From Clostridia bacterium (GTDB lineage: Bacteria; Bacillota; Clostridia; Oscillospirales; CAG-272): a DNA stretch of 59,660 nucleotides. Shown one piece after another: positions 7,375-59,521 of the stretch. The position numbers and the translations under genes were made by a program. The first letter of the stretch is position 1. Each line of letters opens with the position of its first letter. The stretch spans positions 1 to 59,660 of the forward strand of contig JAFWTH010000050.1 in NCBI GenBank assembly GCA_017518975.1, given 5' to 3'. The notes under the pieces are model-generated. The model was not told the DNA's origin. It worked only from the letters and a program-made list of their open reading frames with translations, and ran no database searches.

Positions 7375-7490
7375 GTCTTGAAATGAAATGCCCCCGCGCC
7401 GCGGGAGCATGAAATACGGCTTCGCCGTATGAAATATTCTTTGAATATGAAATTCCTCCGGAGCGCGGTTGCTCCGGAGGAATGATTTTT
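7375..7490 (-). repeat. Hairpin array 3: hairpins joined by ATTTCAT (minus-strand reading)
   Basis: atgaaat on the + strand at 7383, 7409, 7429 and 7447. Hairpins are gcccccgcg/cgcgggagc, acggc-ttc-gccgt and tcctccggagc-gcggtt-gctccggagga (7454-7481, followed by a T-run). Lies between the convergent lipoprotein and gyrA genes. Confidence 0.65.
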
Positions 7491-30444: not shown

Positions 30445-31179
30445 ATGATAAAAATCTTTGTATGCGACGACGACGCGGTCTTCGCGGGACTGCTCGCGGA
30501 ACAGATCCGTGACGCCTTCGGCGCGCTCGGCGCGGAATGCGACGTCAGAACGTTCTCGTCATCCGTCGAGTGCGTCCGCGCCGTCCGGCACGAAAAAGAG
30601 GGCCCGGACGCGGCGTTTCTCGATATCGATATGCCCTCCGTCTCGGGCTTCGGGATCGCGGCGGAAATACGGGAAGCGAAAAGAGGCGTGTTTATCGTAT
30701 TCGTCTCCGGAAAGCAGGAGCTCGTATTCGAGAGCTTCGACTATCACCCGTTCTCGTTCGTAAGGAAGAGTTCCGGAGAAAACCTGCGCGCGTCGATCTC
30801 GAAGGTCTGTTCCTCCATTGTCTCCGCAATGAAGCAAAGCAAGCTCGTCGAGATCCTGGACGTTTATTCGGGTCCCGTTTGCGTGACGGCGGAGGATATT
30901 CTCTACGTTTCAAGCCGGGACCACTATCAGGTCTACGTTCTCGGGAACGGAAAGAAACCCGTCAAGGAGCGCGGAACGATAAGGGACGTCGAGGCGAAGC
31001 TCTCCCCGCTCGGGTTCATCCGTCCGCACAGTCGGTACGTGGTGAACGCCGCGCACGTCAGTTTCTTTTCTCCGAAGATAAACAGAATAGTCCTCGACTC
31101 GAAGGATTCGATCCCCGTCAGCAGGTCAATGGGAGGTCGCGCTCACGAGGAATATCTTAAATACAAGAGGGAGTTTTGA
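30445..31179 (+). CDS. LytTR-family response regulator
   Basis: REC domain (VCDDD...FLDIDMP) and a C-terminal LytTR domain (ILYVSSRDHYQVYV...FIRPHSRYVVN). Confidence 0.9.
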   Translation: MIKIFVCDDDAVFAGLLAEQIRDAFGALGAECDVRTFSSSVECVRAVRHEKEGPDAAFLDIDMPSVSGFGIAAEIREAKRGVFIVFVSGKQELVFESFDYHPFSFVRKSSGENLRASISKVCSSIVSAMKQSKLVEILDVYSGPVCVTAEDILYVSSRDHYQVYVLGNGKKPVKERGTIRDVEAKLSPLGFIRPHSRYVVNAAHVSFFSPKINRIVLDSKDSIPVSRSMGGRAHEEYLKYKREF

Positions 31180-31180
31180 C

Positions 31181-32575
31181 ATGGATGCTCTTACGGGCTT
31201 TATTGAACAGGAAGGCCTTTTCACCACGTTCGTCGTCATTCTGTGGGACGATATTCTGAAGGCGGCAATTCTCGCGGCGTTCATCGCCTTTGTGTCCCGC
31301 CCGAAAGAAAAACCTGTCAGACGGTTCCTTTCCGCGGTCGGAGCGGCGATCCTTATGTACGCGGCGTCCGTTTTTTTCGAGTTTTTCGTGAGCTACAATC
31401 TCTTTCTCAGAGAACTTCGCGAGGTATCTTTCATTCTGATCCTGTTTCTCGCCTCGCTCGCATGCGGGGAAAAGAGTCCCTTCCGCGCCTTGTCGTTTTC
31501 GCTCATCGCGGTGAACGTCTCCGTCGTGACGGAATCCGTTTTGATCGGATCGCTCGCCGCGCAAAGGCCGTTGACGATCCTCAGCGGCAGTATTGCACTC
31601 TCCGCTTATCAGCGCGGGATCGCAGCGTTCGCGACCGCTTTGATCCTTTTCGGCGCCGCCGTCTTTTTCAGAAAATACCGCGCGGAACTCGAACGGAAAG
31701 AAAAGATCGCTCTGCTGACGTCTCTTTCCTTCCTCACGTTGGTCGTTCTGCTGACCCGTAATATTCTCACAACGAACCTCGATTATTATTTGAGAAGGTT
31801 TTTTTCGATATATTCGACGCAAAAAACGGTCGTTTACTGCGTCGTGATCCTCGGCGCCGTCCTTCTTCTGAACGCGTCCGTATACGTCATTTTCGTAAGA
31901 ATCTCTATCCGTAACAAAGAAAAAGCGGAGCAGGCGATCCTCGCGCAAAAGTACCGGGGACAGAATGCGATCATCGAGGAGGTCTCAAAGCAGCATGAAA
32001 AAGTCTCGAGGATGAGGCACGATCTGCTCAATACGCTCGGGACGGTCGACGGGCTCATCGCCTCGGGAAGAACGGACGAGGCGAGAGAGTTCATCCGATC
32101 ACACACCGGTACTCTGTCAGCCGACGTAAGGGCGGTCAATACCGACAACGAGTACGTGAATTCGCTGATCAGCTATAAGTCGTCTCAAGCGAAGGAAAAG
32201 GGCGTGGAGATATCGGTTTACGCCACGTCGAACATCGACTTTCCCGACAACGCGGACCTGTGCAATCTCATCGGCAATATGCTCGACAACGGCATCAACG
32301 CCGCGGCAAAATGCGAAACGGAAAAAGACGTGCGTCTGGATATCACCCGGGACGGCGACGCTTATCGCATATCCGTTCTGAACAGCGTCCCGTCGCCCGT
32401 TCTGAAAACGAATCCGCAGCTTGTGACGAGCAGCCCCGACCGGCTGTCTCACGGATACGGGATGAAGATAATCAGAGAGATCGCGGAAAAATATTACGGA
32501 ACGACGGACTGCTACGATACCGACGACGGAAAGTTCTGCTGCACCGCCGTGCTGTATCCGTCAAGACCGTATTGA
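31181..32575 (+). CDS. Multi-TM GHKL sensor histidine kinase (AgrC/HPK10-like)
   Basis: About 6 TM segments, H-box SRMRHDLLNTL, N-box NLIGNMLDNGINA, G-box SHGYGMKIIREI. Confidence 0.85.
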   Translation: MDALTGFIEQEGLFTTFVVILWDDILKAAILAAFIAFVSRPKEKPVRRFLSAVGAAILMYAASVFFEFFVSYNLFLRELREVSFILILFLASLACGEKSPFRALSFSLIAVNVSVVTESVLIGSLAAQRPLTILSGSIALSAYQRGIAAFATALILFGAAVFFRKYRAELERKEKIALLTSLSFLTLVVLLTRNILTTNLDYYLRRFFSIYSTQKTVVYCVVILGAVLLLNASVYVIFVRISIRNKEKAEQAILAQKYRGQNAIIEEVSKQHEKVSRMRHDLLNTLGTVDGLIASGRTDEAREFIRSHTGTLSADVRAVNTDNEYVNSLISYKSSQAKEKGVEISVYATSNIDFPDNADLCNLIGNMLDNGINAAAKCETEKDVRLDITRDGDAYRISVLNSVPSPVLKTNPQLVTSSPDRLSHGYGMKIIREIAEKYYGTTDCYDTDDGKFCCTAVLYPSRPY

Positions 32576-33499: not shown

Positions 33500-35311
33500 T
33501 TACGCCTCGTCCTCGTACCACTGACTCTGTGAGTCGAACATCTTTTTGTATTCGCCGTTCTTCGCCATCAGCTCGTCGTGAGTGCCGGTCTCGGCGATCT
33601 TTCCGTCCTTCATCATGATTATCCGGTCGGCGAGACGGACGGATCCGAGACGGTGAGTGACGATGAACGACGTCTTGTCGCGCGAGAGTTCGGCGAATCT
33701 TCCGTATATCCTCGCCTCCTCGATCGGGTCGATCGCCGCGGTGGGCTCGTCGAGGATGATGATACTGCTGTCGCGGTAGAATCCTCGCGCTATCGAGACT
33801 CTCTGAACCTGTCCCCCGGACAGACCCACGCCGTCGTCAAATTCACGCGACAGCATAGTGTCGAACCCGTTCGGCAGCCATTCCTCGTCGGGAGAGAAGC
33901 CCGCCATGGCGCACGCTTCCCTCAGATTTTCGTCCGTACTCTCTTTTTCGTACTGACCTATGATGAGGTTTTCCCTGAGCGTCAGCGCGTAATGCGGATA
34001 ACGCTGATAGACCGCCGACAGGCGGCGGGCGACGGATGAAAACGATATCTCCCTCGTGTTCCAGCCGCAGATCTTGACGTCGCCTCCGTCGGGTCGGTAA
34101 TACCCGATGAGAAGTTTGATGAGCGTCGATTTTCCGCTTCCGTTTTCGCCGACGATTGCGACCGTCTCCTTCGGTTTCACCGAGAAGGATACGCCGTCGA
34201 CTGCGGGCGTCTCCGTATTAGGGTAAGAGAATTTCACGTCGCGCACGTCGATCCCGATATCGTACGGAAGCTCGACGTCCTCGCCGTCGTTCTCCGGGAA
34301 ATCGAGATATCTGACGTAATTCTCGATAAAGGGCAGATCTTGTGACGCCGTGGCAAACGACCCGTAGAACAACTGGTGCAGCTTATCCTCGATCATTCCG
34401 ACGGAAGTGAAGACCGCGGCGAACTCGCCTATCGTGATCCTTCCGATGAGAAGGAAGCGGAAGAGCATATAGTAAACTCCGAGCCGTCCGACGAAGGTCA
34501 GGAGCTGCGCCCCGAAGAAAAGCCACCGCTGTTTTGACTCCGTCTTTCGGTCGAGTTTCGTCAGCCTGCGCCACAGACTGCTGAACGAGCGGAAGAAATA
34601 CCAGAATCCTCCGAGCAGGCGCGTCTCCTTGAGAAATTGCTGCGAGGTGGCGCATTCGAAATAGTGGCCCGAAAGACGCCTGTCCGGCGCCGCCTTGTCC
34701 TCTTTGTCTCGATATATCTTTTTCACGAGGAACTGATACAGCAGCGTGGGTATAAAGATCATCAGAAGCGCCGCGACGAGCCAAGGATCGCGTTGTACCA
34801 GATAGACGGACGTGATAACGAAATACGGGATATGGTACAGGACGATCTGCTTGAGCGTTGAGAGCAGCGAGCGCGCAGAGTCCGCTCCGGAACCGGCTTT
34901 TTCGATATCGTCGAGCTTGTCGGTATCCTCGAACAGGATCGGCGGGATCTTCGCCATCTTGGAAAGACGCTGTTCGGTCTGCCTGTTCTCGGCGCGATAG
35001 GAGAACGCGGTATCGGTCCTGTTCGCGATCTGACTGAGGATCGCCGAAAATATGAACGTGCCGGCGTATGCCGCTATGAGAACGATGATGCCGGTCACGG
35101 GTCCGCCGCCGTTTTCATAAACGGTTGTCACCCCGTTGAAAACGCCTTCGAGAACGTAGATCTGCGCGGCCTGAAGGATCGCCTGAACGACGATTATGAT
35201 ACAGCCGATCGAGAAAAGCCCGGGCGCCGCGCCGATTATTACGGGCAGCGTCTTTTTTACGCACTTGAAGAAACCGACGCGCGGCTTCTTATCTTTGTTG
35301 TTCTTCTTCAC
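33500..35311 (-). CDS. ABC exporter, fused permease-ATPase (heterodimer partner B)
   Basis: Six-TM N-terminal half, Walker A GENGSGKST, signature LSGGQVQR, Walker B IIILDE. Confidence 0.9.
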   Translation of the reverse strand: MKKNNKDKKPRVGFFKCVKKTLPVIIGAAPGLFSIGCIIIVVQAILQAAQIYVLEGVFNGVTTVYENGGGPVTGIIVLIAAYAGTFIFSAILSQIANRTDTAFSYRAENRQTEQRLSKMAKIPPILFEDTDKLDDIEKAGSGADSARSLLSTLKQIVLYHIPYFVITSVYLVQRDPWLVAALLMIFIPTLLYQFLVKKIYRDKEDKAAPDRRLSGHYFECATSQQFLKETRLLGGFWYFFRSFSSLWRRLTKLDRKTESKQRWLFFGAQLLTFVGRLGVYYMLFRFLLIGRITIGEFAAVFTSVGMIEDKLHQLFYGSFATASQDLPFIENYVRYLDFPENDGEDVELPYDIGIDVRDVKFSYPNTETPAVDGVSFSVKPKETVAIVGENGSGKSTLIKLLIGYYRPDGGDVKICGWNTREISFSSVARRLSAVYQRYPHYALTLRENLIIGQYEKESTDENLREACAMAGFSPDEEWLPNGFDTMLSREFDDGVGLSGGQVQRVSIARGFYRDSSIIILDEPTAAIDPIEEARIYGRFAELSRDKTSFIVTHRLGSVRLADRIIMMKDGKIAETGTHDELMAKNGEYKKMFDSQSQWYEDEA

Positions 35312-37143
35312 GAGATCGCCTCCTCTCCGGGGGCGTCCTCGTACCAGCTCTTCTGAGTCGAGAACATCTCGGCGTAAATGCCGCCCGCCTTCACGAGCTC
35401 GTCGTGCGAGCCCGATTCCGCGACGGCTCCGCCGTCGATGACGAGGATCCGGTCGGCGATGCGAGCCGCGCCGAGTCGGTGGGTGATGAAGACCGCGCTC
35501 TTGCCCTCCGTCACTTTCTTGAACAGAGCGTAGACGGCGCTCTCAGCGATCGGATCGAGCGCGGCGGTCGGTTCGTCAAGGATCGACACGGGACGATTGC
35601 CGTATAAAGCGCGCGCGATGGCGACCCTCTGCCACTCCCCGCCGGAAAGATCGACGCCGTCCGTCGCCGCCTTTCCGAGCGGAGTGTTGACGCCGGAGTG
35701 GAGTTTTTCAAGCGCTTCGGTGAGGCCGATCTCCTCGGTCACGCGCAGGACGTCCTCGTCGCTGTCTCTGTTCACGTCGCCCAGCTTGATCGCGTCGCCG
35801 TAAGGGATCTGATATTTTGCGAAATCCTGAAAAACGACGGAGAACAACCCCTTTATCTCGGCGTACGTGAAGTCGCGCAGGTTTTTCCCGCCGATCAGAA
35901 TATCGCCCTCGTATTCGTCGTACAGACCGGTGAGCAGCTTTGTGATCGTCGTCTTACCCGCGCCGTTCACACCGACGAAGGCGCAGTGTTCACCCTCGTT
36001 TATAGTGAACGAGCAGTTTTTGAGTATGTAGCGGTCCGTGCCGGGATACTTGAAGGAAACGTCTCGGAACTCGATCTTGCCGAAATTGAATCCGCTCATA
36101 TCGGCGGGCGGATCGAGCGCGCCCTCCTGCTCCTCAAGCTGAGAGAATTCCGACAGGTCTCCGAGGTTCTTTGTCGCCTGAGCCATCCATCTGACGTCCC
36201 ACGGGATGCCGCCCCCGACTATTCCCACCGCGCGAAGCAGAAGATTGGCGAAGCCGACGAAGAAGCCGGCGGAGAGTTCACCTCGTCCGACGGCGAACAC
36301 AAGAGCCGTCATTATCGCGGCGTACATCACCCACGAGAGGGACCGTATAAAATTGTCTCTTCTCGAGTTTCTGACCGTGTTTTTCAGATTCTTCCGGTCC
36401 ATTTCGAGCTTCGTTTTTTTCCATTTTCCGAATATGAAAGGAGCGTACCCGAACGTCGAGCGTTCCTCAAGATAGTCCTTTGCCGAGAGGAAAGCCTGAT
36501 ACTTGCCGGCGTATCTTCCGTCTTTTTCAACGTTGAAAAACGTCTCGTAATCCTGAAGACCCGATCTTACGGCGAGAAAAACGGCGGGAATAACGATACC
36601 GACCGCGATGAGTCCGCCCCACCATACCTTGAGAAACACGGAGGAGATCGTAATGACGAGAAACACCCATCGATAGGCGATCCATATTACCCGTCCTCCT
36701 CTCTCGAGCATCTTGCCCGCCGGTTCGCTGCACGCGCGGCCTATGAGGTCGTACGTTTTGCTGTCCTCAACGTAACGGTACTTGATGCTTGCCTGTTTTA
36801 TCAGAAAGACCTCTTTCGTGACCGAATAAACTTTCTCTCGCAAACGGGCAAACGTGATATCTTCAAACTGATAAACGGCTGAATTCAAGAAGAACGTGGC
36901 GAACATGAAGACGAGAGGCATGATGATCGCCGATTCCGGCGCTTCGCCCCGAATGACCGAAAGAGCGGTATCAACAAACGACGCCGTGGTAAAAAGTTGA
37001 AGATACGGGTACACGGTCTCGAGCACGTTGGCAAGCAGATCGAGGGCGGTCCAGAGCGGAGTGACACGGAACAGGAAAAGGAAGCAGTCGATCAGCCGCC
37101 ATTTGCCCCGTTTGAGCTCAGGCAGCTTTTTTTCTTTTTTCAA
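35308..37143 (-). CDS. ABC exporter, fused permease-ATPase (heterodimer partner A)
   Basis: Walker A GVNGAGKTT, signature LSGGEWQR, Walker B VSILDE. TTG start after aaaggag. A 4-nt overlap with the downstream partner. Confidence 0.88.
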   Translation of the reverse strand: MKKEKKLPELKRGKWRLIDCFLFLFRVTPLWTALDLLANVLETVYPYLQLFTTASFVDTALSVIRGEAPESAIIMPLVFMFATFFLNSAVYQFEDITFARLREKVYSVTKEVFLIKQASIKYRYVEDSKTYDLIGRACSEPAGKMLERGGRVIWIAYRWVFLVITISSVFLKVWWGGLIAVGIVIPAVFLAVRSGLQDYETFFNVEKDGRYAGKYQAFLSAKDYLEERSTFGYAPFIFGKWKKTKLEMDRKNLKNTVRNSRRDNFIRSLSWVMYAAIMTALVFAVGRGELSAGFFVGFANLLLRAVGIVGGGIPWDVRWMAQATKNLGDLSEFSQLEEQEGALDPPADMSGFNFGKIEFRDVSFKYPGTDRYILKNCSFTINEGEHCAFVGVNGAGKTTITKLLTGLYDEYEGDILIGGKNLRDFTYAEIKGLFSVVFQDFAKYQIPYGDAIKLGDVNRDSDEDVLRVTEEIGLTEALEKLHSGVNTPLGKAATDGVDLSGGEWQRVAIARALYGNRPVSILDEPTAALDPIAESAVYALFKKVTEGKSAVFITHRLGAARIADRILVIDGGAVAESGSHDELVKAGGIYAEMFSTQKSWYEDAPGEEAIS

Positions 37144-37245
37144 GCGGTATTCTCCTTTCTGGGTTTTCCGAGTCCGCCGCGCCGGGAGAAGTCGGCAAAG
37201 ACACGCGCTACACAGGACGCGCGCGCTCCGGCGGAGCTCATCTTT

Positions 37246-37273
37246 ATTTTATCTGCGAGAAGAACTTTGTCAA
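37246..37273 (-). promoter_or_regulatory. Candidate promoter of the ABC exporter operon
   Basis: Minus-strand TTGACA (37273-37268), 16 nt, TAAAAT (37251-37246). Confidence 0.5.
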
Positions 37274-37334: not shown

Positions 37335-37563
37335 AAAAAAAGTGCGCAGCGTGAGCCGCGCACCGAAAAACGCACAACTCCTATTGCTGCGACACAATTT
37401 TCAAGGTGGGGTAACAGGAGCTTCCCGAACCCGCCCGGAGCGGCGCCTATACGGCATATTTTCGTTTCTCGTCCTTGCCTTATCTATGTAAGCGTTGAAA
37501 CGGAGCCTGCATTTTACCAAAGTAAAAAGCACGCTTACAAATCCAAATATGAAATTGTGCCGC
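37335..37563 (-). ncRNA. Structured RNA element B (paralogue of the leader at 52479-52633)
   Basis: Own promoter TTGAAT (37598-37593), 17 nt, TATAAT (37575-37570). Closing helix tgcggcacaattt/aaattgtgtcgca. Inner helix gtaagcgt/acgcttac. Hairpin ttttac-tttg-gtaaaa. Terminator gtgcgcggctcacgctgcgcac + U7 (37363-37335). The 3' ~55 nt are nearly identical to element A. Confidence 0.6.
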
Positions 37564-37623
37564 AACCACATTATAACACGCAGCCGTCTTTTATTCAATA
37601 GCGGGATACGCGTCGGGTCAAAG

Positions 37624-37647
37624 AAAAAGCGCCGTACGGCGCTTTTT
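37624..37647. terminator. Bidirectional terminator
   Basis: aaaaagcgccg-ta-cggcgcttttt, a perfect palindrome with A/T runs on both sides. Confidence 0.75.
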
Positions 37648-37696
37648 CAAAAATAAAAACACAGCGAAACGAGTGAAAAGCAGACTTACCCCTCAG

Positions 37697-38017
37697 TTAC
37701 GACCCGACAGCCGTAATGATGCCGGATTTCAGAGGGAAAGAAGGGTCGCTCTGAGTCATCGACAACAGTCTGCACGCGGCTCCCTCGGGATGATTTCTTC
37801 CCGCTTCCCACGCCTCGACGGTCTTTACCGAAACGCCCAGATATCTGGCAAATAATACTTGTGTAAGCCCCGTGCTGTTCCGGATTTTTTTGATCTCATC
37901 CGGCGTAAAGGACTCTACCGGCTCGATTGAAAGCGTAACGGTTTTTGCGTTCAGCTTTCCTTTTTCAAATTCGATCGCCTGATTCAGTCCGGTTTTGATA
38001 TCGTCAAACACGCCCAT
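37697..38017 (-). CDS. higA: HigA-type XRE-family HTH antitoxin
   Basis: FTPDEIKKIRNSTGLTQVLFARYLGVSVKTVEAWEAGRNHP is an HTH pattern. Lies downstream of the toxin gene (HigBA gene order). Confidence 0.8.
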   Translation of the reverse strand: MGVFDDIKTGLNQAIEFEKGKLNAKTVTLSIEPVESFTPDEIKKIRNSTGLTQVLFARYLGVSVKTVEAWEAGRNHPEGAACRLLSMTQSDPSFPLKSGIITAVGS

Positions 38018-38029
38018 TGTTTTCCTCCT

Positions 38030-38374
38030 TTACTTGTTTTCCTTCAACTGCTGTTCGAGCAGTTTGATAAGGTGTTTTATCTCGTTCTTTTCCGAATCGC
38101 TTAAATTGTCTTTTTCGTCTTTAGTATATGCCGTGATTAAAAAGATTTTTTCATAGATTTCAAAATCGACGTATATCACCCTGACGCTTCCGCTTTTGCC
38201 GCGGTGTTCGAATGCGAAGCGCATCTTCCGGACGCCGCCGGTTCCGCGCATAACCGCTCCGACCTGCGGGTCGGCAAGAAGTTCCTCTTGAAGACGAAGT
38301 AAATCGTTATCGTCAAGCCCCATGGCTTTCCATCTTGTTCTGAAAATCGGCAGTTCAACAAACGTCCTTGTCAT
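38030..38374 (-). CDS. higB: HigB-2/RelE-like toxin
   Basis: 114 aa, ...GTGGVRKMRFAFEHRGKSGSVRVIYVDF...LITAYTKDEKDNLS is the family pattern. Confidence 0.75.
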   Translation of the reverse strand: MTRTFVELPIFRTRWKAMGLDDNDLLRLQEELLADPQVGAVMRGTGGVRKMRFAFEHRGKSGSVRVIYVDFEIYEKIFLITAYTKDEKDNLSDSEKNEIKHLIKLLEQQLKENK

Positions 38375-38643: not shown

Positions 38644-41600
38644 TTATTTCACGTTCGCCCTGTAAAGGAACGTGACGATCTGCGCTCTGGTGCAGAAGGC
38701 GTAGGGCGAGAACGCGGTATCGGACGTACCCTTCGTTATCTCTTCTCCGACCGCCCAGAGTACCGCTTTGTAGAAGTAATCGTCCTCGCTCACGTCTCCG
38801 AACGGGTTGACGGGTCCTTCTTCCTCGTATTCGCCCGGGTCGGCATCCCATCCGTCGTCGAAGACGTCTTCGGTTTCCCCGTCGCCGGGGCGGCCCGCCG
38901 CGCGCCACAGGAACGTGACGATCTGCGCTCTCGTGCAAACGTTGTCGGGCGAGAAGGCGTCGGCCGCGGTACCGGTGGTTATCTCCTTTTCGACCGCCCA
39001 GAGTACCGCTTTGTAGAAGTAATCGCTTTCGCTCACGTCGCCGAACGGGTTTTCGGTGAGGGTCGGTTCGGGTGAACCGGCGGCGCGCCACAGGAACGTG
39101 ACCGCCTGCGCTCTCGTGCACTCGTCGTCGGGCGAGAAGGTATCCGCGCCGGTCCCCGTTGTGATGCCGCCGGAGACCGCCCACGCCACGGGTCTCGCAA
39201 AATATGCGTCGGCGGGAACGTCGGAGAACGATCTCGGCGCTTTTGCCGTCGCCGTGACGGTATCGCTCGTCTGCCCGTAATTGATCGGGTCAAAATACCA
39301 CGGTGAGCCGTCGGGGACTTCGGTGTAGCCCGACGCCCTCAGTTCGTACTTTCCTTCATCGAGTCCGAATACGACCGCTTCGGTCACGGGGCCCGCGAAG
39401 CGCGCTTCGCGCCATTCTTCCTCGCCCTCGGCGCGGTATTCGATCCGATAGCCGGAAAGACCGCACTCGGACTGATCGCGGAGCTTGACGGTCAGTTTGC
39501 CCTCGCCTTCCTCGACGCTCTCGATCACCGCTTTTTGCGGTACGATAACGAAAGTTGCGAATACATCGGGGCTGACGGATACGCGGTCGCTGACTTGTCC
39601 GATTTTTACGGTCGCGAGGCCGCATTTTACGTTATCTTCGTAAACGAAGCTGAAGTCCTCGTCTTTGACGAGGGCCTGAACGAGGCAGTCCACGTTTTCC
39701 GCGGGGGCGATCTCCTCGCCCGTGTACTCGTATACGACGCGCTGTTTTCCCGTAGAAAAGTCCGTCTGTAGGAAGATACCCGTTATGACCGATTTATACA
39801 CGTGGACGTAGAACGGGATCGTTCCGACCCCTTTCACGGTGACGTAAGCGATCGCTTTCTCTCCTTCGACGTTGTTCGCGGTGAACACGGCTCTAAGGCC
39901 GTTCGCTCCCGGAGAGAGCGTGACGACTCTGTCGCCTCCTTCCTCCAATCCCCACGAGACGTCTTCCTCTGCGAAGACGGGCACGTTGGCCTCGGTCGCG
40001 TGGAAGCCGATGCGCATGACCGAGCTTCCTCTCGTATCCGTCTTATAGTATAGGAAGGTATTGCCGTTCAAGGCCGGGATGAAGTCTTTTTCAAGCTGTC
40101 GGCAATATCCCTTTATCGGGAAATTGTCGTACGTCAGATCCTCCGAAACGGTGCCGTTGCCGAGGATGCCCAGCTCCGTCGCCATTTCATCTCTGAAGTC
40201 CTGCTCCTGCGCGTAGTCGCACCACGCGCCGTCCCTCAGGAAGAAGCTTTCCCCATTGTTGATTATCCCTTTGAACGATTGGATGCCGCTGTCCTCATAG
40301 AAGGAGTACTGGAAATTGACCGCGTATTTGCCCTCGGCGCTCTTTTGAGTGACCACGATCGAATAGGGCTGATACTTCGTCAGCAGGATCCTGCCGGAGC
40401 CGTCGCCCGCGACGTCGAACAGAACGTCGAAATCCTTGAGGGATTCAAGGTGATATCCCCCGTACCGGTACGTCGTCTCCATTTCGGCGACTTTCAGCCC
40501 CTCTTCCGGGGCTTTCGAGTAGCCGTCGAGCAGATAGATCTCGTATTTTACGGTCATGCCGGGCTCGGACGTGAAGCAGGATACCTCCTCAAGCTCCTCA
40601 CAGTGAGACGCCGTGAAGATATTGCCCATCTTCATCTCGTCCTCGGAGAAGAAGGACAGAGCGTCGCCCACCGGCATATAGTCGTGCTGATCGGTTATGT
40701 TTACCCCCTCGTCGTTCTCTTCGACGACGTAGCTGACGGGTCCGGAGGCCGTCTGATCGTAGTAGGACAGCCAAAACAGCCCCGTGTGGTTCCCGCTTTC
40801 GTCGACGATGCCCCACGTGCCCGAGCCCTCGCTCGGGAAACCGGAGCCGCCCGCTCCCCAGCTGTTCTTCACGAGCCACGCGCCGTCCGCGGGGGGCGCC
40901 TTGTCGATCGTGACCGTCGTTCCGTCTGTCAGGACCGCCTCGACGGTCCCCTGGATAAAGTTGTCGCGGGAATAACCGTCGTCCCAGCCGATGATCGTCA
41001 CCGCGTGGTTGGAACCGATGGGCATATAAGTGTAGTGAGCCCAGTTGTCGCTGATGAACTGCGCGCCGCCTTCCTGCCCCGGCACGGAGGTGTCGGCGCA
41101 GAAGTTGATTTGAACGGCGCGGCGGGCGAGGAGCTCTTCCTTGATCGCCTTCGTGGCGGCGGGATTGTAAACGTAATGACCGTCCTCGTCGGGGTTTGAC
41201 GGATTCGGAAGGAAGCGCGCTTCTTTGACGGTGTACGACTTCATGAAGCGGTACGCTGACGGGATCGTCCAGTCGTCAGAGGCGCTGTACGAATACTTTT
41301 TGAGTTCCCCGGACAGCCATTCGTAATTGATAACGGCACCTTTTCCGTGATATTCGAAGATCGGGTCGACGCTCTCATGCACCGGACCGATGCCCTGCGC
41401 GAGCGCACCGGCGGAGAACACCTCGTTCCCTCCCCGGTTCATAAACTCCGTGAGTCCGTCCTCCGAGATGAAGTCGGCGATGAACTGACCCTCTCCGTTC
41501 TGTGGGTTTCCGGGTTCGTTCAGCGGAGTGGCGGAGAACCACGCGAGCTGTTTTTCGGACAGATCGAGAGTTTCGGGCGTCGCTGGCGCCCCGTCCGCAC

Positions 41601-41865
41601 CGTCAAGACCCGCGCCGAGGATACTGCTTTCCAGGGCGGCGATCGTCGCGAAGGACCAGCAAGTTCCGAAAGGCGCCTGCGATCTCACGGGAGTCGTATA
41701 ACACTTCCCGTCCACGTCGCGCAGATCGAACGACGACGGCAAAACGGGGACCTCGTCCGTTTCCACGTCCCCGGGACCGGCGTAAACGGCAGACGTTGAG
41801 AGTGCCGAGAACGTGGGAATGAGAAGACAGAGCGCAAGGATGATCGAAAGCGTTCTTTTTTTCAT
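38644..41865 (-). CDS. Secreted C1 (papain-like) cysteine peptidase with Ig-like middle region and three C-terminal SLH repeats
   Basis: Signal peptide MKKRTLSIILALCLLIPTFSALSTSAVYA. Active-site Cys context SQAPFGTCWSFATIAALES. C-terminal FSDVPADAYF.../FGDVSESDYFY.../FGDVSEDDYFY... repeats. Confidence 0.85.
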   Translation of the reverse strand: MKKRTLSIILALCLLIPTFSALSTSAVYAGPGDVETDEVPVLPSSFDLRDVDGKCYTTPVRSQAPFGTCWSFATIAALESSILGAGLDGADGAPATPETLDLSEKQLAWFSATPLNEPGNPQNGEGQFIADFISEDGLTEFMNRGGNEVFSAGALAQGIGPVHESVDPIFEYHGKGAVINYEWLSGELKKYSYSASDDWTIPSAYRFMKSYTVKEARFLPNPSNPDEDGHYVYNPAATKAIKEELLARRAVQINFCADTSVPGQEGGAQFISDNWAHYTYMPIGSNHAVTIIGWDDGYSRDNFIQGTVEAVLTDGTTVTIDKAPPADGAWLVKNSWGAGGSGFPSEGSGTWGIVDESGNHTGLFWLSYYDQTASGPVSYVVEENDEGVNITDQHDYMPVGDALSFFSEDEMKMGNIFTASHCEELEEVSCFTSEPGMTVKYEIYLLDGYSKAPEEGLKVAEMETTYRYGGYHLESLKDFDVLFDVAGDGSGRILLTKYQPYSIVVTQKSAEGKYAVNFQYSFYEDSGIQSFKGIINNGESFFLRDGAWCDYAQEQDFRDEMATELGILGNGTVSEDLTYDNFPIKGYCRQLEKDFIPALNGNTFLYYKTDTRGSSVMRIGFHATEANVPVFAEEDVSWGLEEGGDRVVTLSPGANGLRAVFTANNVEGEKAIAYVTVKGVGTIPFYVHVYKSVITGIFLQTDFSTGKQRVVYEYTGEEIAPAENVDCLVQALVKDEDFSFVYEDNVKCGLATVKIGQVSDRVSVSPDVFATFVIVPQKAVIESVEEGEGKLTVKLRDQSECGLSGYRIEYRAEGEEEWREARFAGPVTEAVVFGLDEGKYELRASGYTEVPDGSPWYFDPINYGQTSDTVTATAKAPRSFSDVPADAYFARPVAWAVSGGITTGTGADTFSPDDECTRAQAVTFLWRAAGSPEPTLTENPFGDVSESDYFYKAVLWAVEKEITTGTAADAFSPDNVCTRAQIVTFLWRAAGRPGDGETEDVFDDGWDADPGEYEEEGPVNPFGDVSEDDYFYKAVLWAVGEEITKGTSDTAFSPYAFCTRAQIVTFLYRANVK

Positions 41866-41945
41866 TGTTTGCCCGTGCGGAGCGATTCGGAGCCCCGCTT
41901 TTCCTTTCTTGTCCTTTTTTTGTAAAGAAACCGATCTACTGCGTA

Positions 41946-43373
41946 TCAATAACCGCTGTTTACGGTCTCGACCTTGATTATGTTCGTGTTTCCGGGCGTG
42001 TCGAGCGGGATGCCGCCGACGATGACGACGCGGTCGCCGTCAGACACGAGGTCGATCTGCTTCGCGCAGTCGATCGCGTGACGGAACAAACTGTCGAAAT
42101 CGTCCTGATTTCGCGCGAGGACGGGATAAACGCCCCAAGAGAGCGCGAGCTGGTGGAACGTTTTGACGTTCGGCGTCGCCGCCACGATCGGCGTGGAGGG
42201 ACGGAATTTCGACATTCTTCTCGCGCTGCGGCCCGTCATCGTCAGGGCGACGATGGCGTCCGCCTTGAGATCGCGCGCCGTCGTGCACGCCGCGTCGCAC
42301 ACGGCGTTCGTTATGTCCTCGGAGTCCATCACGTAGCTGCCCGCCGCGCCCTTCATCGAGAACGAGTCGCGTTCCGCCTGCTCGGCGACCTTCGCCATGA
42401 CCCCGATCGCGCGGAGCGGATATTCGCCCACGGCGGTCTCGCCGGAGAGCATGACGGCGGACGTGCCGTCGAAGACGGCGTTCGCAACGTCGGTGATCTC
42501 CGCTCTCGTCGGCGTCGGATGACTTATCATGGATTCGAGCATCTGCGTCGCCGTGATGACCATCTTGCCGGAGCGGTAGCATTCTTTTATAAACCGTTTC
42601 TGCAGGCCGGGAAGGCGCTCGAACGGTATCTCGACGCCCATATCGCCTCGGGCGACCATGATGCCGTCCGACCTCGCGAGGATCTCGCTGAAGTTGCGGA
42701 CTCCCTCGCTGTTCTCGATCTTCGAGATGATCCTGATCGCGTGGCCGCCGTTGTAATCGATGAATTTTCTCATGTTCGTCACGTCCTCCGCCGAGCGGAC
42801 GAAGGAAGCGGCGACGAAATCGATATCGTTTTCTATGCCGAAAAGCAGGTCGTCGCGGTCGCGGTCGGAAAGATGGGGTATGTCGAGATGGACGTTCGGA
42901 ACGTTGACGCCCTTCCCCGATTTGATAATGCCGCCCGAAGTGACCGTCGTGACGATCTCATCGTTCCCGGCGGACTTGACGGTGAGTTCTATGTTTCCGT
43001 CGTCGAGAAGAATCCTCGTTCCCTCCGACATCTGCGCGGGAAGACCCGCGAACGTGATCCGGGCGCCCTTCTCGTCGCCTTCGGCGTCGCGCGCGGTGAG
43101 AGTGAACTCCGAGCCGGTCTCAAGCGTCGCCGAGCCGCCGCGGAACGTGCCGAGGCGGATCTCCGGGCCTTTCGTGTCGAGCATTATCGCCACGGGGACG
43201 CCGAGCTTGTCTCTCGCCGCCTTGACGGCGTCGATCTTCGCCTTGTGTTCCTCGTGCGTGCCGTGGGAGAAGTTCAGACGGGCGACGTTCATCCCCGCCT
43301 TTATCATCTCGGTGATCTTCTCTTCGGTGTCCGTCGCCGGACCGAGCGTACAAACTATTTTGGTTTTCAGCAT
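41946..43373 (-). CDS. pyk: Pyruvate kinase
   Basis: KIVCTLGPAT...NVARLNFSHG...MLDTKGPEIR...MVARGDMGVEIP motifs. Confidence 0.96.
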   Translation of the reverse strand: MLKTKIVCTLGPATDTEEKITEMIKAGMNVARLNFSHGTHEEHKAKIDAVKAARDKLGVPVAIMLDTKGPEIRLGTFRGGSATLETGSEFTLTARDAEGDEKGARITFAGLPAQMSEGTRILLDDGNIELTVKSAGNDEIVTTVTSGGIIKSGKGVNVPNVHLDIPHLSDRDRDDLLFGIENDIDFVAASFVRSAEDVTNMRKFIDYNGGHAIRIISKIENSEGVRNFSEILARSDGIMVARGDMGVEIPFERLPGLQKRFIKECYRSGKMVITATQMLESMISHPTPTRAEITDVANAVFDGTSAVMLSGETAVGEYPLRAIGVMAKVAEQAERDSFSMKGAAGSYVMDSEDITNAVCDAACTTARDLKADAIVALTMTGRSARRMSKFRPSTPIVAATPNVKTFHQLALSWGVYPVLARNQDDFDSLFRHAIDCAKQIDLVSDGDRVVIVGGIPLDTPGNTNIIKVETVNSGY

Positions 43374-52445: not shown

Positions 52446-52651
52446 TTGATTTTTCTCGCACGATATGCTAAACTGAACCTGCGACACAAACGAATATTTC
52501 TTTGCGTAAGTGTGTATTTTTACTAACGGTAAAAATGCATGCTCCTTATGCATACTTATGCAAAGGAATCGTTTGTGTCGCAGCAACGAAGCAATGCATT
52601 TTTCGGTGCGTGGCTTCGGCTGCGCACTTTTTTATTGTGAGGAAAGAAAAA
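52446..52651 (+). promoter_or_regulatory. Promoter plus structured leader element A with terminator (attenuator/riboswitch-like)
   Basis: TTGATT (52446), 17 nt, TAAACT (52469). 15-bp helix 52479-52493/52569-52583. Inner helix 52500-52510/52555-52565. Hairpins at 52516-52536 and 52535-52553. UUCG-loop terminator 52606-52627 + U6. RBS gaggaaag at 52639. Confidence 0.65.
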
Positions 52652-54391
52652 ATGGCAGAAAACATTATGAAAGAAGTAAAATTTATAGACTACTATAACG
52701 GAGCGATAGAAAAAAGCGATTCTTTACCCAAAGGGAACGAATATGATTTTTTGCTTGAGAGAAATAAATCTCATATGCGCGAAACGGCATTAACCTTCGG
52801 GAAAAAGAATATTTCTTTTGAAGAGTTACACGAAAAGATTGACGAGTACGCCAGAGCTCTTTATCATTACGGGGTTAGAAAGGGAGACTATATCGGCGTA
52901 TGTGTTGCCAATACTCCCGAATCCGTCTACTTGGTTTACGCTCTTAACAAATTAGGCGCTGTAATGGTGGGCTTGAGTCCATTGAATAACGAATACAAAA
53001 TGGTTCGAGATATCGAATTGACGCAACCGAAAATGATTTTTACATTGGATTTTATGTATTCAACAATCAAGAAAGCATGTGCAGAATACAGTATAAAACC
53101 AATTCTTTACTCGCCGTTGCTTTCAATTAAGAATCCAATTATAAAGGGACTATATAATTTTAAGCAACACAAAGAAGGTAACCTCCTTTCATCAAAAGAA
53201 AACCGACTGGATAAAATCATCAAAAGCGACAAGTTATCAAACGTTGAGTATTCAAAACATATTAACGGAACATGTACTAACATAATGTTTACCGGCGGAA
53301 GCAGCGGAGTGCATAAAGGAGTTATGCTCGACGGCAACGGCCTGAATTGTGTCGTAAAAGCACTCGACCATGTTTTGGTTTTAGAACCTGGAATGGTTCA
53401 TCTGGGAAATATCCCTTTCGGACATATGTGTTTCGGAAGATTGGTGTTGCATTACGTTCTATGTAAAAACGCTACATATGCATTAACACTCAAAGCAATG
53501 CCTCAAGATTTTTTAGATGAAATGATAAGAGTTCATGCAAACGGCGCAATGGGAGGACCGGTGCATTGGGAAGCACTTATTGATAATCCAAAATTGAAAA
53601 AAGGGTGCTTGGGTGAATTGATCCAGCCTTTATCCGGGGGCGAATTGTTTAAACCTCAGAGACTTAAACAAGCAAATGAAGCAATTAAACATGCAGGTTG
53701 CAAAGCAGAGATCGGTAACGGTCTTGGATCTACCGAAATGTGGGCTCCGACACATGTATGCGTTGGAGGACGAAATACCTCCGGGACCATAGGATATGAA
53801 TTACCTTTTGTCCATTCAAAAATTGTTGATCCAATAACATTTGAAGAAGTTCACGACGGGGAAAACGGATTACTGCTTGTCAACGGTCCGGGAATGATGT
53901 TGGGATATTTTAAAAACGAGAAAGAAACAGAATCGGTTTTTTGTTTTGACGAAAGCGGAACAAAATGGTATAACACAAAGGATATCGTGAGAAAGCTACC
54001 GACCGATGAATATGAGTACATAGGTCGTATAAAAAGGAACTTCGTTTCAGGCGTTGACAATATTTACCCAGAACAAATAGAACAACTGTTAATACAGATA
54101 CCTGAAATTCGAGAAGTTGCAGTTACGCCGATTCCTGATGAGAATGAACAGCATTTGCCTAAATATCATATCAGATTGTCTGAGGAGAATTGCGATAAAG
54201 CGAAAACTGAAGCAAGTATTGTTTCGATAGTTGAATCAACTTTGGGAAGAACGGCTGTGCCTGGTTATATTGAATACTATGATAAACCATTGCCTCGAAC
54301 AGATAACGGAAAACTAGATGTTACATTGCTTAGCCAAAAAGATATAGACTCTATCCAGGATAAAGACCGGTATAGAACTGCTTTCAGATGA
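52652..54391 (+). CDS. ANL-superfamily adenylate-forming enzyme (AMP-dependent synthetase/ligase)
   Basis: FTGGSSGVHKGV (AMP-binding core motif), GNGLGSTEM, YNTKD...GRIKR. About 35 % GC versus ~58 % in the flanks. Confidence 0.85.
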   Translation: MAENIMKEVKFIDYYNGAIEKSDSLPKGNEYDFLLERNKSHMRETALTFGKKNISFEELHEKIDEYARALYHYGVRKGDYIGVCVANTPESVYLVYALNKLGAVMVGLSPLNNEYKMVRDIELTQPKMIFTLDFMYSTIKKACAEYSIKPILYSPLLSIKNPIIKGLYNFKQHKEGNLLSSKENRLDKIIKSDKLSNVEYSKHINGTCTNIMFTGGSSGVHKGVMLDGNGLNCVVKALDHVLVLEPGMVHLGNIPFGHMCFGRLVLHYVLCKNATYALTLKAMPQDFLDEMIRVHANGAMGGPVHWEALIDNPKLKKGCLGELIQPLSGGELFKPQRLKQANEAIKHAGCKAEIGNGLGSTEMWAPTHVCVGGRNTSGTIGYELPFVHSKIVDPITFEEVHDGENGLLLVNGPGMMLGYFKNEKETESVFCFDESGTKWYNTKDIVRKLPTDEYEYIGRIKRNFVSGVDNIYPEQIEQLLIQIPEIREVAVTPIPDENEQHLPKYHIRLSEENCDKAKTEASIVSIVESTLGRTAVPGYIEYYDKPLPRTDNGKLDVTLLSQKDIDSIQDKDRYRTAFR

Positions 54392-54581: not shown

Positions 54582-54776
54582 AATGAAGAAACCGGACCTT
54601 TGGAGACGGAGGCATCAAAGGGATGCCTCCCTACGGCGGTATCAATAAAGATCCCGCCAAAATGATATACCCGCCCCCGAAAGGGGCGGGTATGGTATCC
54701 CGCTTGGGCGGGATGATATACTCCTTCGGAGTATGATATACCGCTGACGCGGTATGAGATACTGCCTGCGGCAGTA
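54582..54776 (-). repeat. Hairpin array 6 (TATATCAT linkers, minus-strand reading), right inverted repeat of the islet
   Basis: atgatata on the + strand at 54662, 54713 and 54733, with variants at 54754. ggaggcatc-aaagg-gatgcctcc at 54609-54631. cccgccccc-gaaa-ggggcggg. Inverted copy of 52296-52380. Confidence 0.75.
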
Positions 54777-57718: not shown

Positions 57719-57794
57719 GGGTGAATGATGGGGCTCGAACCCACGACCTCCAGGGCCACAACCTGGCGCTCTAGCCAACTGAGCTACATCCACC
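57719..57794 (-). tRNA. tRNA-His (GTG)
   Basis: Cloverleaf folded by hand. Extra G-1 paired with C73. Anticodon loop TTGTGGC. Confidence 0.9.
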
Positions 57795-57829
57795 ATGGGT
57801 CGAGGAGCTCGGATCGCGATCTCCCCGGA

Positions 57830-57903
57830 CGTACCTTGGGGGATTCGAACCCTCGACCTACTGCTTAGAAGGCAGTTGCTCTATCCTGCTGAGCTAAAGG
57901 TAC
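57830..57903 (-). tRNA. tRNA-Arg (TCT)
   Basis: Acceptor GTACCTT/AAGGTAC. Anticodon stem ACTGC/GCAGT, loop CTTCTAA. One A-C mismatch in the T stem. Confidence 0.85.
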
Positions 57904-57977
57904 TGGAGCGGGTGATGGGAATCGAACCCACATGACCAGCTTGGAAGGCTGGTGTTCTACCACTGAACTACACCCGC
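57904..57977 (-). tRNA. tRNA-Gly (TCC), CCA encoded
   Basis: Acceptor GCGGGTG/CACCCGC, anticodon loop CTTCCAA, T-loop TTCGATT. Abuts tRNA-Arg with no spacer. Confidence 0.9.
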
Positions 57978-59447: not shown

Positions 59448-59521
59448 GGAGGCGTAGCTCAGCTGGTCAGAGCGTTCGGTTCACATCCGAGAGGTCATGG
59501 GTTCGAGCCCCCTCGTCTCCA
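59448..59521 (+). tRNA. tRNA-Val (CAC)
   Basis: Acceptor GGAGGCG/CGTCTCC. Anticodon stem TTCGG/CCGAG, loop TTCACAT. No encoded CCA. Confidence 0.88.

Follow-up and report, generated by a model that had tools for sequence, protein, structure and literature searches.

The window analysed in this study consists of positions 1 to 59,660 of the contig JAFWTH010000050.1 of a Clostridia bacterium of the Oscillospirales (CAG-272; assembly GCA_017518975.1). Two elements lying some 15 kb apart in it resemble each other: one, referred to here as copy A, precedes the gene of an acyl-CoA (AMP-binding) ligase on the plus strand, and the other, copy B, lies on the minus strand upstream of two genes for MsbA-like half-transporters of an ABC exporter (Table 1). 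An earlier note on this DNA, made from its letters, had proposed that the two elements are copies of a single RNA architecture. In the analysis reported here copies A and B are recognized as members of a large and apparently uncatalogued family of leader RNAs, probably attenuators, found in uncultured Clostridia of gut and rumen, and the segments of these leaders can be arranged in two complete, mutually exclusive sets of predicted helices, one ending in an intrinsic terminator and the other in an antiterminator.

The likeness of the two copies is readily recognized when they are aligned. The last ~75 nt of B are nearly identical to positions 52570-52633(+) of A, and identity is lower over the 5' ~100 nt. 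P1, the closing helix, contains ACGA/TCGT in A and TTT/AAA in B, together with a single change from A-U to G-U, so that the compensatory changes proposed in the earlier note are real; a GTAAG/CTTAC inner helix, a UUUUAC/GGUAAAA hairpin and a GCUCC motif are common to both copies. That GCUCC is shared was correct, its description as single-stranded was not: it is the 3' half of a segment (b) which forms a covarying pseudoknot with GGAG(C/U) just 3' of P1. Promoter and terminator scans also recover the signals that had been assigned to B, the promoter with a TG extension in addition and the terminator as GGTGCGCGGCTCACGCTGCGCACT followed by T7, while the extra domain of B, first put at about 85 nt, measures 87 nt. 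With a covariance model derived from the copies of other species (R1, built from 69 non-redundant members of the family), copy A scores 139.7 bits (E 1e-29) and copy B 90.6 bits (E 1e-18), and thus their similarity is far beyond chance; a scan of the window with R1 yielded no further convincing copy.

The extent of the family was established by scanning one genome per species with the pattern TGTGTCGCAGCAA-N(22-48)-GCTGCGCAC. This pattern fixes 22 nt, corresponding to the 3' strand of P1 and to the terminator segment f, and all family-wide counts given below are counts among the matches listed. At least 119 contigs from about 115 species-level metagenome-assembled genomes (MAGs) match, with two contigs in each of four MAGs and one in each of the others; the carriers are labelled as Oscillospiraceae, Acutalibacteraceae, Ruminococcus, Ruminiclostridium, Eubacteriales or Clostridia. 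The other members of the family score between 70 and 157 bits with R1, and a leader is typically 156-170 nt long: at 156 nt copy A is typical, whereas copy B, at 232 nt, is the longest of 122. R1 picked up additional copies that do not conform to the pattern, several of them in tandem (three units in L027 and two each in L070, L113, L119 and L089), every unit having its own promoter and terminator. Small XRE/HTH_3 regulator genes sit after the tandem arrays of L027 and L119. An origin of the leader in phages or morons was considered and rejected, as 2.9 million viral contigs gave nine matches to the pattern, of which just one proved to be a true copy.

The family does not correspond to any entry of Rfam 15. 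At gathering thresholds the whole window matches only tRNAs and Gut-1 among its 4227 models, none of which matches A or B, and permissive scans (E up to 10) of A, B and the best-scoring member of the family (L017) returned noise, with 13-29 bits against thresholds of 36.8-245. In the parts of the open literature that could be searched, including large RNA-discovery surveys, neither the conserved strings of the family nor keywords on the topic gave a match; an unnamed catalogue entry may nonetheless exist. A leader with a terminator and an antiterminator is a known kind of regulator, while the family itself, its four-helix relay with a pseudoknot and its surface-protein regulon appear to be undescribed.

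The consensus order of the segments, taken from the alignment of the 69 non-redundant members, is given in Table 1. The AAA of GGUAAAA is invariant in these sequences, and conserved loop residues are found in AAUA, in GAAA and in the GG of GGUAAAA. Conservation is highest in segments d to f (pairwise identity is 88% in columns 121-182), and few of the conserved residues are unpaired. Four segments have two alternative partners each: a pairs with c or with b, b with a or with d, d with b or with e, and e with d or with f. The two mutually exclusive sets of predicted helices consist therefore of P1, a:c, b:d and e:f on one side, and of a:b and d:e on the other.

Both sets are well represented in the alignment, which was produced by MAFFT with no structure as a guide. 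In P1, 95.3% of cells are paired, and in its extension columns UA (25), CG (16), AU (14) and GC (9) replace one another. The helix a:c is paired in 81.6% of cells, the pseudoknot b:d in 88.2% and the terminator e:f in 99.8%; for the alternative set, a:b is paired in 81.8% and the antiterminator d:e in 92.3%. Both sides have changed in 6 of the 7 pairs of a:c, in 9 of the 10 pairs of b:d, in 7 of the 8 pairs of a:b and in 5 of the 11 pairs of d:e. As a control, when the partner was slid by 1-3 columns pairing fell to 30-60% of cells, and column shuffles never reached the observed covariation score. The exchanges between b and d can also be seen by eye, for example as CCUC/GAGG in L023, GCCUC/GAGGC in L097, and GCCC/GGGC in L096 and L106. 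The case of P2 is different, in that its 5'-strand columns have a sequence identity of only 40%: the mean pairing energy of each member's own strands is -11.6 kcal/mol, against -3.75 kcal/mol with the strands of other members, and just 2.2% of the cross pairs are as stable. When the sequences are folded singly, P1 forms in 68 and P2, with a median of 12 bp, in 67 of the 69. Compensation extends to the off-pattern copies, in which P1 occurs as UGCUACACAA/UUGUGUAGCA, GCCAAACAA/UUGUUUGGC, GUCAAACAAAAC/GUUUUGUUUGAC and GCGACGUAAAAUUU/AAAUUUUACGUCGC, while segments d to f stay conserved next to the divergent P1. Many conserved pairs are G-U pairs on the strand of the leader only, which argues for a structure of RNA rather than of DNA. 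Overall, in over 100 species-level genomes compensatory changes have kept the 5' helices intact, and this identifies a real family of structured RNAs, and not just a generic terminator. Pairing between the 3' strand of P1 and segment f was seen in 10 of the 69 folds; it is not kept in the divergent copies with a different P1, and was treated as incidental.

The position of the leaders with respect to promoters and genes is equally regular. Typical units have a promoter of sigma-70 type: of 121 members, 120 carry a -10-like hexamer at most 22 nt ahead of P1, half of these with a TG extension, which indicates that the RNA starts at P1. In 84 of 112 cases (75%) an open reading frame on the same strand, preceded by a Shine-Dalgarno-like sequence, begins within 40 nt of the terminator stem (median 27 nt). 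Such a spacing leaves no room for another promoter, suggesting that these genes depend on read-through and that the family as a whole is clearly one of cis-acting leaders. The genes themselves are heterogeneous. BspA-type LRR_5 proteins are encoded by 25 of 109 of them, and LRR genes lie both upstream and downstream of leaders; other domains are double zinc ribbons, SLH, collagen-like repeats, Big_2, Listeria-Bacteroides repeats, Ltp lipoprotein and superinfection-immunity, accompanied by HTH_3 regulators (three times), AMP-binding enzymes (three times) and an ABC ATPase (once). By a crude estimate with regular expressions, 69 of 112 downstream proteins (62%) have a signal-peptide-like N-terminus, 38 of these with a lipobox-like motif.

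These observations can be interpreted in terms of a transcription attenuator acting in cis, whose decision point is whether or not b pairs with d: we consider this the probable function of the family to which A and B belong. Transcription would start from a strong housekeeping-type promoter at the foot of P1. In the stop state segment a would pair with c, the helix stacking on P2 and P1, and the b segment left free (UGCAUGCUCU) would combine with d (GGAGCUAUGCG) into a pseudoknot of ~10 bp just after P1; segment e would then be available to f, the intrinsic terminator would form, and an RNA of ~160 nt would be released. In the read-through state the pairing of a with b would extend the hairpin P3, leaving d free to form the antiterminator with e; f would remain unpaired, and the polymerase would continue into the gene, whose ribosome-binding site is placed directly after the U tract. 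Whatever keeps b from d could serve as the input for read-through, for example a protein or RNA acting in trans, a small ligand, or rapid elongation. A sensor of elongation rate that works by kinetics alone would in this sense be a variant of the attenuator model, from which it is inseparable here.

The termination and read-through steps, as well as the polarity of the switch, are what we infer from folding and energies. Nested minimum-energy folds, in which no pseudoknot is possible, contain the terminator in 39 and the antiterminator in 30 of the 69 members. Crude duplex energies are -8.2 kcal/mol for a:c, -11.9 for b:d, -18.2 for e:f, -6.9 for a:b and -12.8 for d:e, summing to about -38 kcal/mol in the stop state versus about -20 in the read-through state; these sums are approximate and ignore the loop and topology costs of the pseudoknot. 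As the stop state is favoured, termination would be the default and read-through would require an input. Because of this default, of the heterogeneity of the genes, and of the peak of conservation in the antiterminator, as in the T-box, RAT and PyrR systems, we lean slightly toward an effector that favours read-through and is either a macromolecule acting in trans or a small signal of global reach. A more specific reading is tentative at best, and on present evidence doubtful: the family might be a riboswitch class of its own, new and still an orphan, or the RNA component of a new, dedicated antitermination system, sensing a global signal (for example a cyclic-dinucleotide second messenger) and switching on the variable surface proteome of uncultured Oscillospirales of gut and rumen. 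The unusual four-helix relay would then use its pseudoknot as an anti-antiterminator, and its targets would be BspA-type LRR proteins, lipoproteins, zinc-ribbon membrane proteins and XRE regulators.

Several points weigh against the attenuator interpretation, the neglect of pseudoknot costs in the energy sums being the first. Since the 3' strand of P1 and segment f are fixed by the scan pattern, their invariance is partly a selection bias. Conservation of the expression platform exceeds what is usual for classical riboswitches, for which the need of most conserved segments to satisfy two pairings offers a simple reason. When the 761 open reading frames of the loci were clustered, the LRR family and one ABC-like cluster were all that emerged, with no conserved regulator nearby. 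All carriers (L007-L125) are uncultured MAGs from human, rabbit, ruminant and other guts, with no cultured isolate among them, a distribution that may also explain the absence of the family from Rfam. The tandem units with their own promoters and the 198-nt gap after B would fit an independent release of small RNAs as well. Finally, the closest orthologue of the ABC operon, 95% identical at the protein level, retains the separate promoter and a related 5' untranslated region (UTR), but neither a leader nor an HTH_3 gene is present in it; the link between B and the exporter is for this reason weak.

Among the alternatives, a riboswitch for a small molecule or second messenger, with the P1-P2-P3 junction and b:d as its aptamer and a ligand that steadies either the pseudoknot (OFF) or d:e (ON), would account for a pseudoknotted, covarying domain with conserved loop residues, for the terminator-type expression platform and for the tandem copies, which occur in some riboswitches as well. 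Cyclic di-GMP (c-di-GMP) riboswitches of Clostridia have a surface-protein regulon, which the regulon described here resembles. The downstream genes, however, provide no metabolic clue, few conserved residues are unpaired, it is the expression platform, and not a binding pocket, that is most strongly conserved, and no Rfam riboswitch model matches, so that we regard this explanation as unlikely.

The terminated RNA of ~160 nt could instead be the functional product, a multicopy small RNA acting in trans by titrating a protein or pairing with mRNAs, with downstream expression incidental. The promoter and terminator carried by each unit, tandem arrays included, the thermodynamic preference for the stop state and the very high conservation of columns 121-182 are all compatible with such a role, as is the distance of more than 110 nt that separates B and a few other copies from the next open reading frame. 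The ribosome-binding sites and start codons that follow most leaders too closely for a promoter argue against it, and in a pure small RNA the conserved, covarying d:e antiterminator would be purposeless; we find this role improbable for the family. Repeats acting at the level of DNA (a mobile promoter/terminator cassette, an inverted repeat, or a recombination site of surface genes) would explain a long inverted repeat in many copies flanked by variable surface-protein genes, with LRR genes on both sides, but this is very improbable, because the G-U pairs that are kept would turn into A-C mismatches in the opposite strand, P2 covaries without conservation of sequence, orientation and spacing to the open reading frames are fixed, the element is conserved across bacterial families, and of the nine pattern matches in viral contigs just one is real. 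Lastly, a ribosome-mediated attenuator using the AUG inside GGUAAAAAUGCAUGC is effectively refuted: while the chain of helices recalls segments 1:2, 2:3 and 3:4 of the trp type and the AUG of copy A (position 52535) shares the reading frame of the ligase gene, only 52 of the 69 members have an AUG, GUG or UUG there (17 have no start codon), none has a Shine-Dalgarno-like sequence, stop positions are scattered, and codon variation follows the pairing with segment d.

Table 1. Predicted segments of the leader RNA, with their consensus in 69 members, and neighbouring features. Empty cells, no entry.
Feature	Consensus	Copy A (+ strand)	Copy B (- strand)	Remarks
Promoter	-10 hexamer with frequent TG extension; a few nt separate its end from the RNA		37570..37598	B: TTGAAT, 17 nt, TATAAT, TG extension; promoter scan
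Leader		52478..52633	37335..37566	A: 156 nt, R1 139.7 bits, typical; B: 232 nt, R1 90.6 bits
P1, 5' strand	UGCGACACAA + 3-4 variable pairs	52479-52493	37552..37564, UGCGGCACAAUUU	B: 13 bp with 37400-37388, one G-U
Internal loop after P1 5' strand	AAUA
P2, 5' strand	variable
Segment a	AAGUGUGUA	52506-52516	37529..37538, GUAAGCGUGC	Partner c (stop) or b (read-through)
P3 hairpin	UUUUUAY...GGUAAAAA	52517-52535	37512..37528	B: UUUUUAC-UUU-GGUAAAA
Segment b	UGCAUGCUCU	52536-52545	37502..37511, UGCAGGCUCC	Pseudoknot strand, holds GCUCC
Spacer b-c	UUUUC
Segment c	GCAUACUU	52550-52559	37488..37496, AACGCUUAC
Insertion specific to B			37401..37487	GC-rich, 87 nt, between c and P1 3' strand; two extra b-like GCUCC motifs
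P2, 3' strand	variable
Internal loop before P1 3' strand	GAAA
P1, 3' strand	UUGUGUCGCA	52569-52583	37388..37400, AAAUUGUGUCGCA
Linker P1-d	GCAAU
Segment d	CGGAGCUAUGCG	52587-52598	37371..37382, AGGAGUUGUGCG	Partner b (pseudoknot) or e (antiterminator)
Loop d-e	UUUUUCG
Segment e	GUGCGUAGCUUC	52605-52617	GGUGCGCGGC
Segment f	GGCUGCGCAC	52619-52627	GCUGCGCAC
U tract	U5-7	52628-52633 (U6)	U7	Ribosome-binding site and start codon follow
Terminator			37335..37364	B: e, loop UCAC, f, U7; 3' hairpin of A also by terminator scan
Acyl-CoA (AMP-binding) ligase gene		52652..54391		ATG with ribosome-binding site 24 nt after segment f of A
ABC operon promoter			37246..37273	TTGACA, 16 nt, TAAAAT
Two ABC exporter half-transporter genes, MsbA-like			33500..37143	611 + 603 amino acids; 198 nt downstream of B
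Terminator-like hairpin			37620..37650, AAAAAGCGCCGUACGGCGCUUUUU (bidirectional)	Ends HTH_3 gene, shields B promoter from upstream transcription
Tandem leader arrays in other genomes				L027:4746-5371(+); L119:1153-1596(+); L070:6458-6830(-); L113:7657-8000(-); L089:1-300(+)

Copy A conforms to the general pattern of the family, since the open reading frame directly downstream starts 24 nt away with no intervening promoter. An orthologue of the ligase with 88% identity (L002) is preceded by the same leader, which contains further compensatory changes in the closing and inner helices, whereas homologues with 58-69% identity have no leader, its place being taken by a short spacer rich in A and T or by a divergent HTH_3 gene; the RNA is thus not tied to the ligase enzyme. 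In L003 and L005 it is a divergent HTH_3 gene that precedes the ligase, and in L003, L005 and L006 the gene of a hybrid HisKA/response-regulator kinase follows it: in these three loci the enzyme seems, from its gene neighbourhood, to be under protein-based control. The co-regulation of an adenylating enzyme and an exporter that had been suggested for the two copies agrees with our results only in part, in that the adjacency of A and the ligase is typical, but the family serves diverse genes, is specific to neither of these two, and is weakly linked to the exporter. The open reading frame at 52502-54391(+), an in-frame TTG extension of the ligase through leader A, is an artefact of the gene finder. 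The Gut-1 motif (RF01706) occurs twice in the window, at 7381-7458(+) with 60.1 bits and at 54690-54765(+) with 53.3 bits, and the second copy is located between the genes of the ligase and of valyl-tRNA synthetase.

Copy B retains every core segment of the family, with a P2 that is almost vestigial. Its plain minimum-energy fold is not the fold of the family, which is recovered by constrained folding at a cost of 1.8 kcal/mol. One motif of the insertion can pair with d at -15.3 kcal/mol, against -12.0 kcal/mol for b itself, and the same insertion occurs in L137 and L138, where an HTH_3 gene accompanies the leader. B is probably a derived copy, in which the insertion adds two decoy b-like motifs. 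Its next open reading frame is 198 nt away, and the separate candidate promoter noticed earlier upstream of the ABC gene does lie between them. In an orthologue of the ABC operon with 79% identity the HTH_3 gene, a long B-type leader and the operon are all present, and the 5' UTR of the orthologue with 95% identity is less similar than that of this more distant one. The interval 37143-37273(-), with the ABC promoter and a GC-rich 5' UTR of ~100 nt, is kept both with and without leader B, and may represent a second, separate regulatory element. B is therefore best described as a conserved but accessory unit, providing at most some conditional transcription in addition to that from the operon's own promoter; equally well, B might be an orphan whose main product is the short RNA. 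The choice offered in the earlier note, a read-through leader or a free-standing small RNA, was accordingly fair for B, which is an outlier among cis-acting leaders.

Directly upstream of B, at 37697-38374(-), are genes for a RelE-like protein (114 amino acids) and an HTH_3 protein (106 amino acids) that resemble a toxin-antitoxin pair. The 65-residue open reading frame at 37401-37598(-), which covers leader B, is another artefact of the gene finder; translation of the leader RNA produces a recurring pseudo-peptide, CVAAIG...FGCALF, also seen in L119. Upstream of the toxin-antitoxin-like pair, at 38644-41949(-), is the gene of a surface protein of 1101 residues (peptidase C1, lectin-like and three SLH domains); although this is the usual type of target, R1 detects no leader adjoining it. 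Ordinary features of the window include a cluster of three tRNAs at 57720-57977(-), a tRNA at 59448-59521(+), and the genes of a LytTR regulator and a GHKL kinase at 30445-32575(+).

The Oscillospirales are abundant bacteria of gut and rumen, mostly uncultured, and to our knowledge almost nothing is known of how they control their surface proteins. That one highly conserved leader stands before dozens of kinds of genes for exported proteins, in over 100 species, suggests a single regulatory signal, which would govern the face that these bacteria show to host, phage and neighbours. As it is easily synthesised, the leader RNA provides a handle for ligand screens and protein pull-downs, and a marker of the regulon in metatranscriptomes. 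The relay in which a pairs with b or c, b with d, d with e, and e with f would be a clean natural case of multi-step strand exchange, and would also account for how an expression platform can reach the conservation of an aptamer.

Comparison with known systems places the family near several of them. As in the T-box (RF00230), a long hairpin domain at the 5' end leads into an antiterminator and a terminator that compete, tandem copies occur, and the antiterminator region is the most conserved part across many unrelated genes of one genome. The family lacks, however, the specifier loop, the T-box sequence and the UGGN bulge, RF00230 does not match, its genes (LRR_5, zinc ribbons, SLH, HTH_3, AMP-binding) are not those of aminoacyl-tRNA synthetases or amino-acid metabolism, and it is the b:d pseudoknot, not the acceptor end of a tRNA, that competes for the antiterminator strand. 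The c-di-GMP-I and -II riboswitches (RF01051, RF01786) are likewise multicopy leaders with intrinsic terminators, found before heterogeneous surface, adhesin and regulator genes, and class II makes use of a pseudoknot; yet neither model matches the leader even at E up to 10, and in the leader the conserved core is in the expression platform.

In the PyrR, TRAP, BglG/LicT RAT and ANTAR systems, too, one element overlapping the terminator is repeated in many operons, where it is read by a single trans factor. By eye the leader has no GAG/UAG repeats, paired hexaloop hairpins or RAT sequence; such an inspection, in which no K-turn, T-box, RAT or ANTAR motif was found, amounts to a lead and not to a test. 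Like the trp-type attenuators, the leader is a chain of segments each of which pairs with either neighbour, with a terminator at the end, but it has no leader peptide and one of its links is a long-range pseudoknot. Gut-1 (RF01706) and the Clostridiales-1 orphan motif share habitat and host bacteria (uncultured Clostridia) with the leaders and have no assigned function; their structures are unrelated to that of the leader family, which is absent from Rfam 15 and is distinguished by its clear cis-regulatory geometry.

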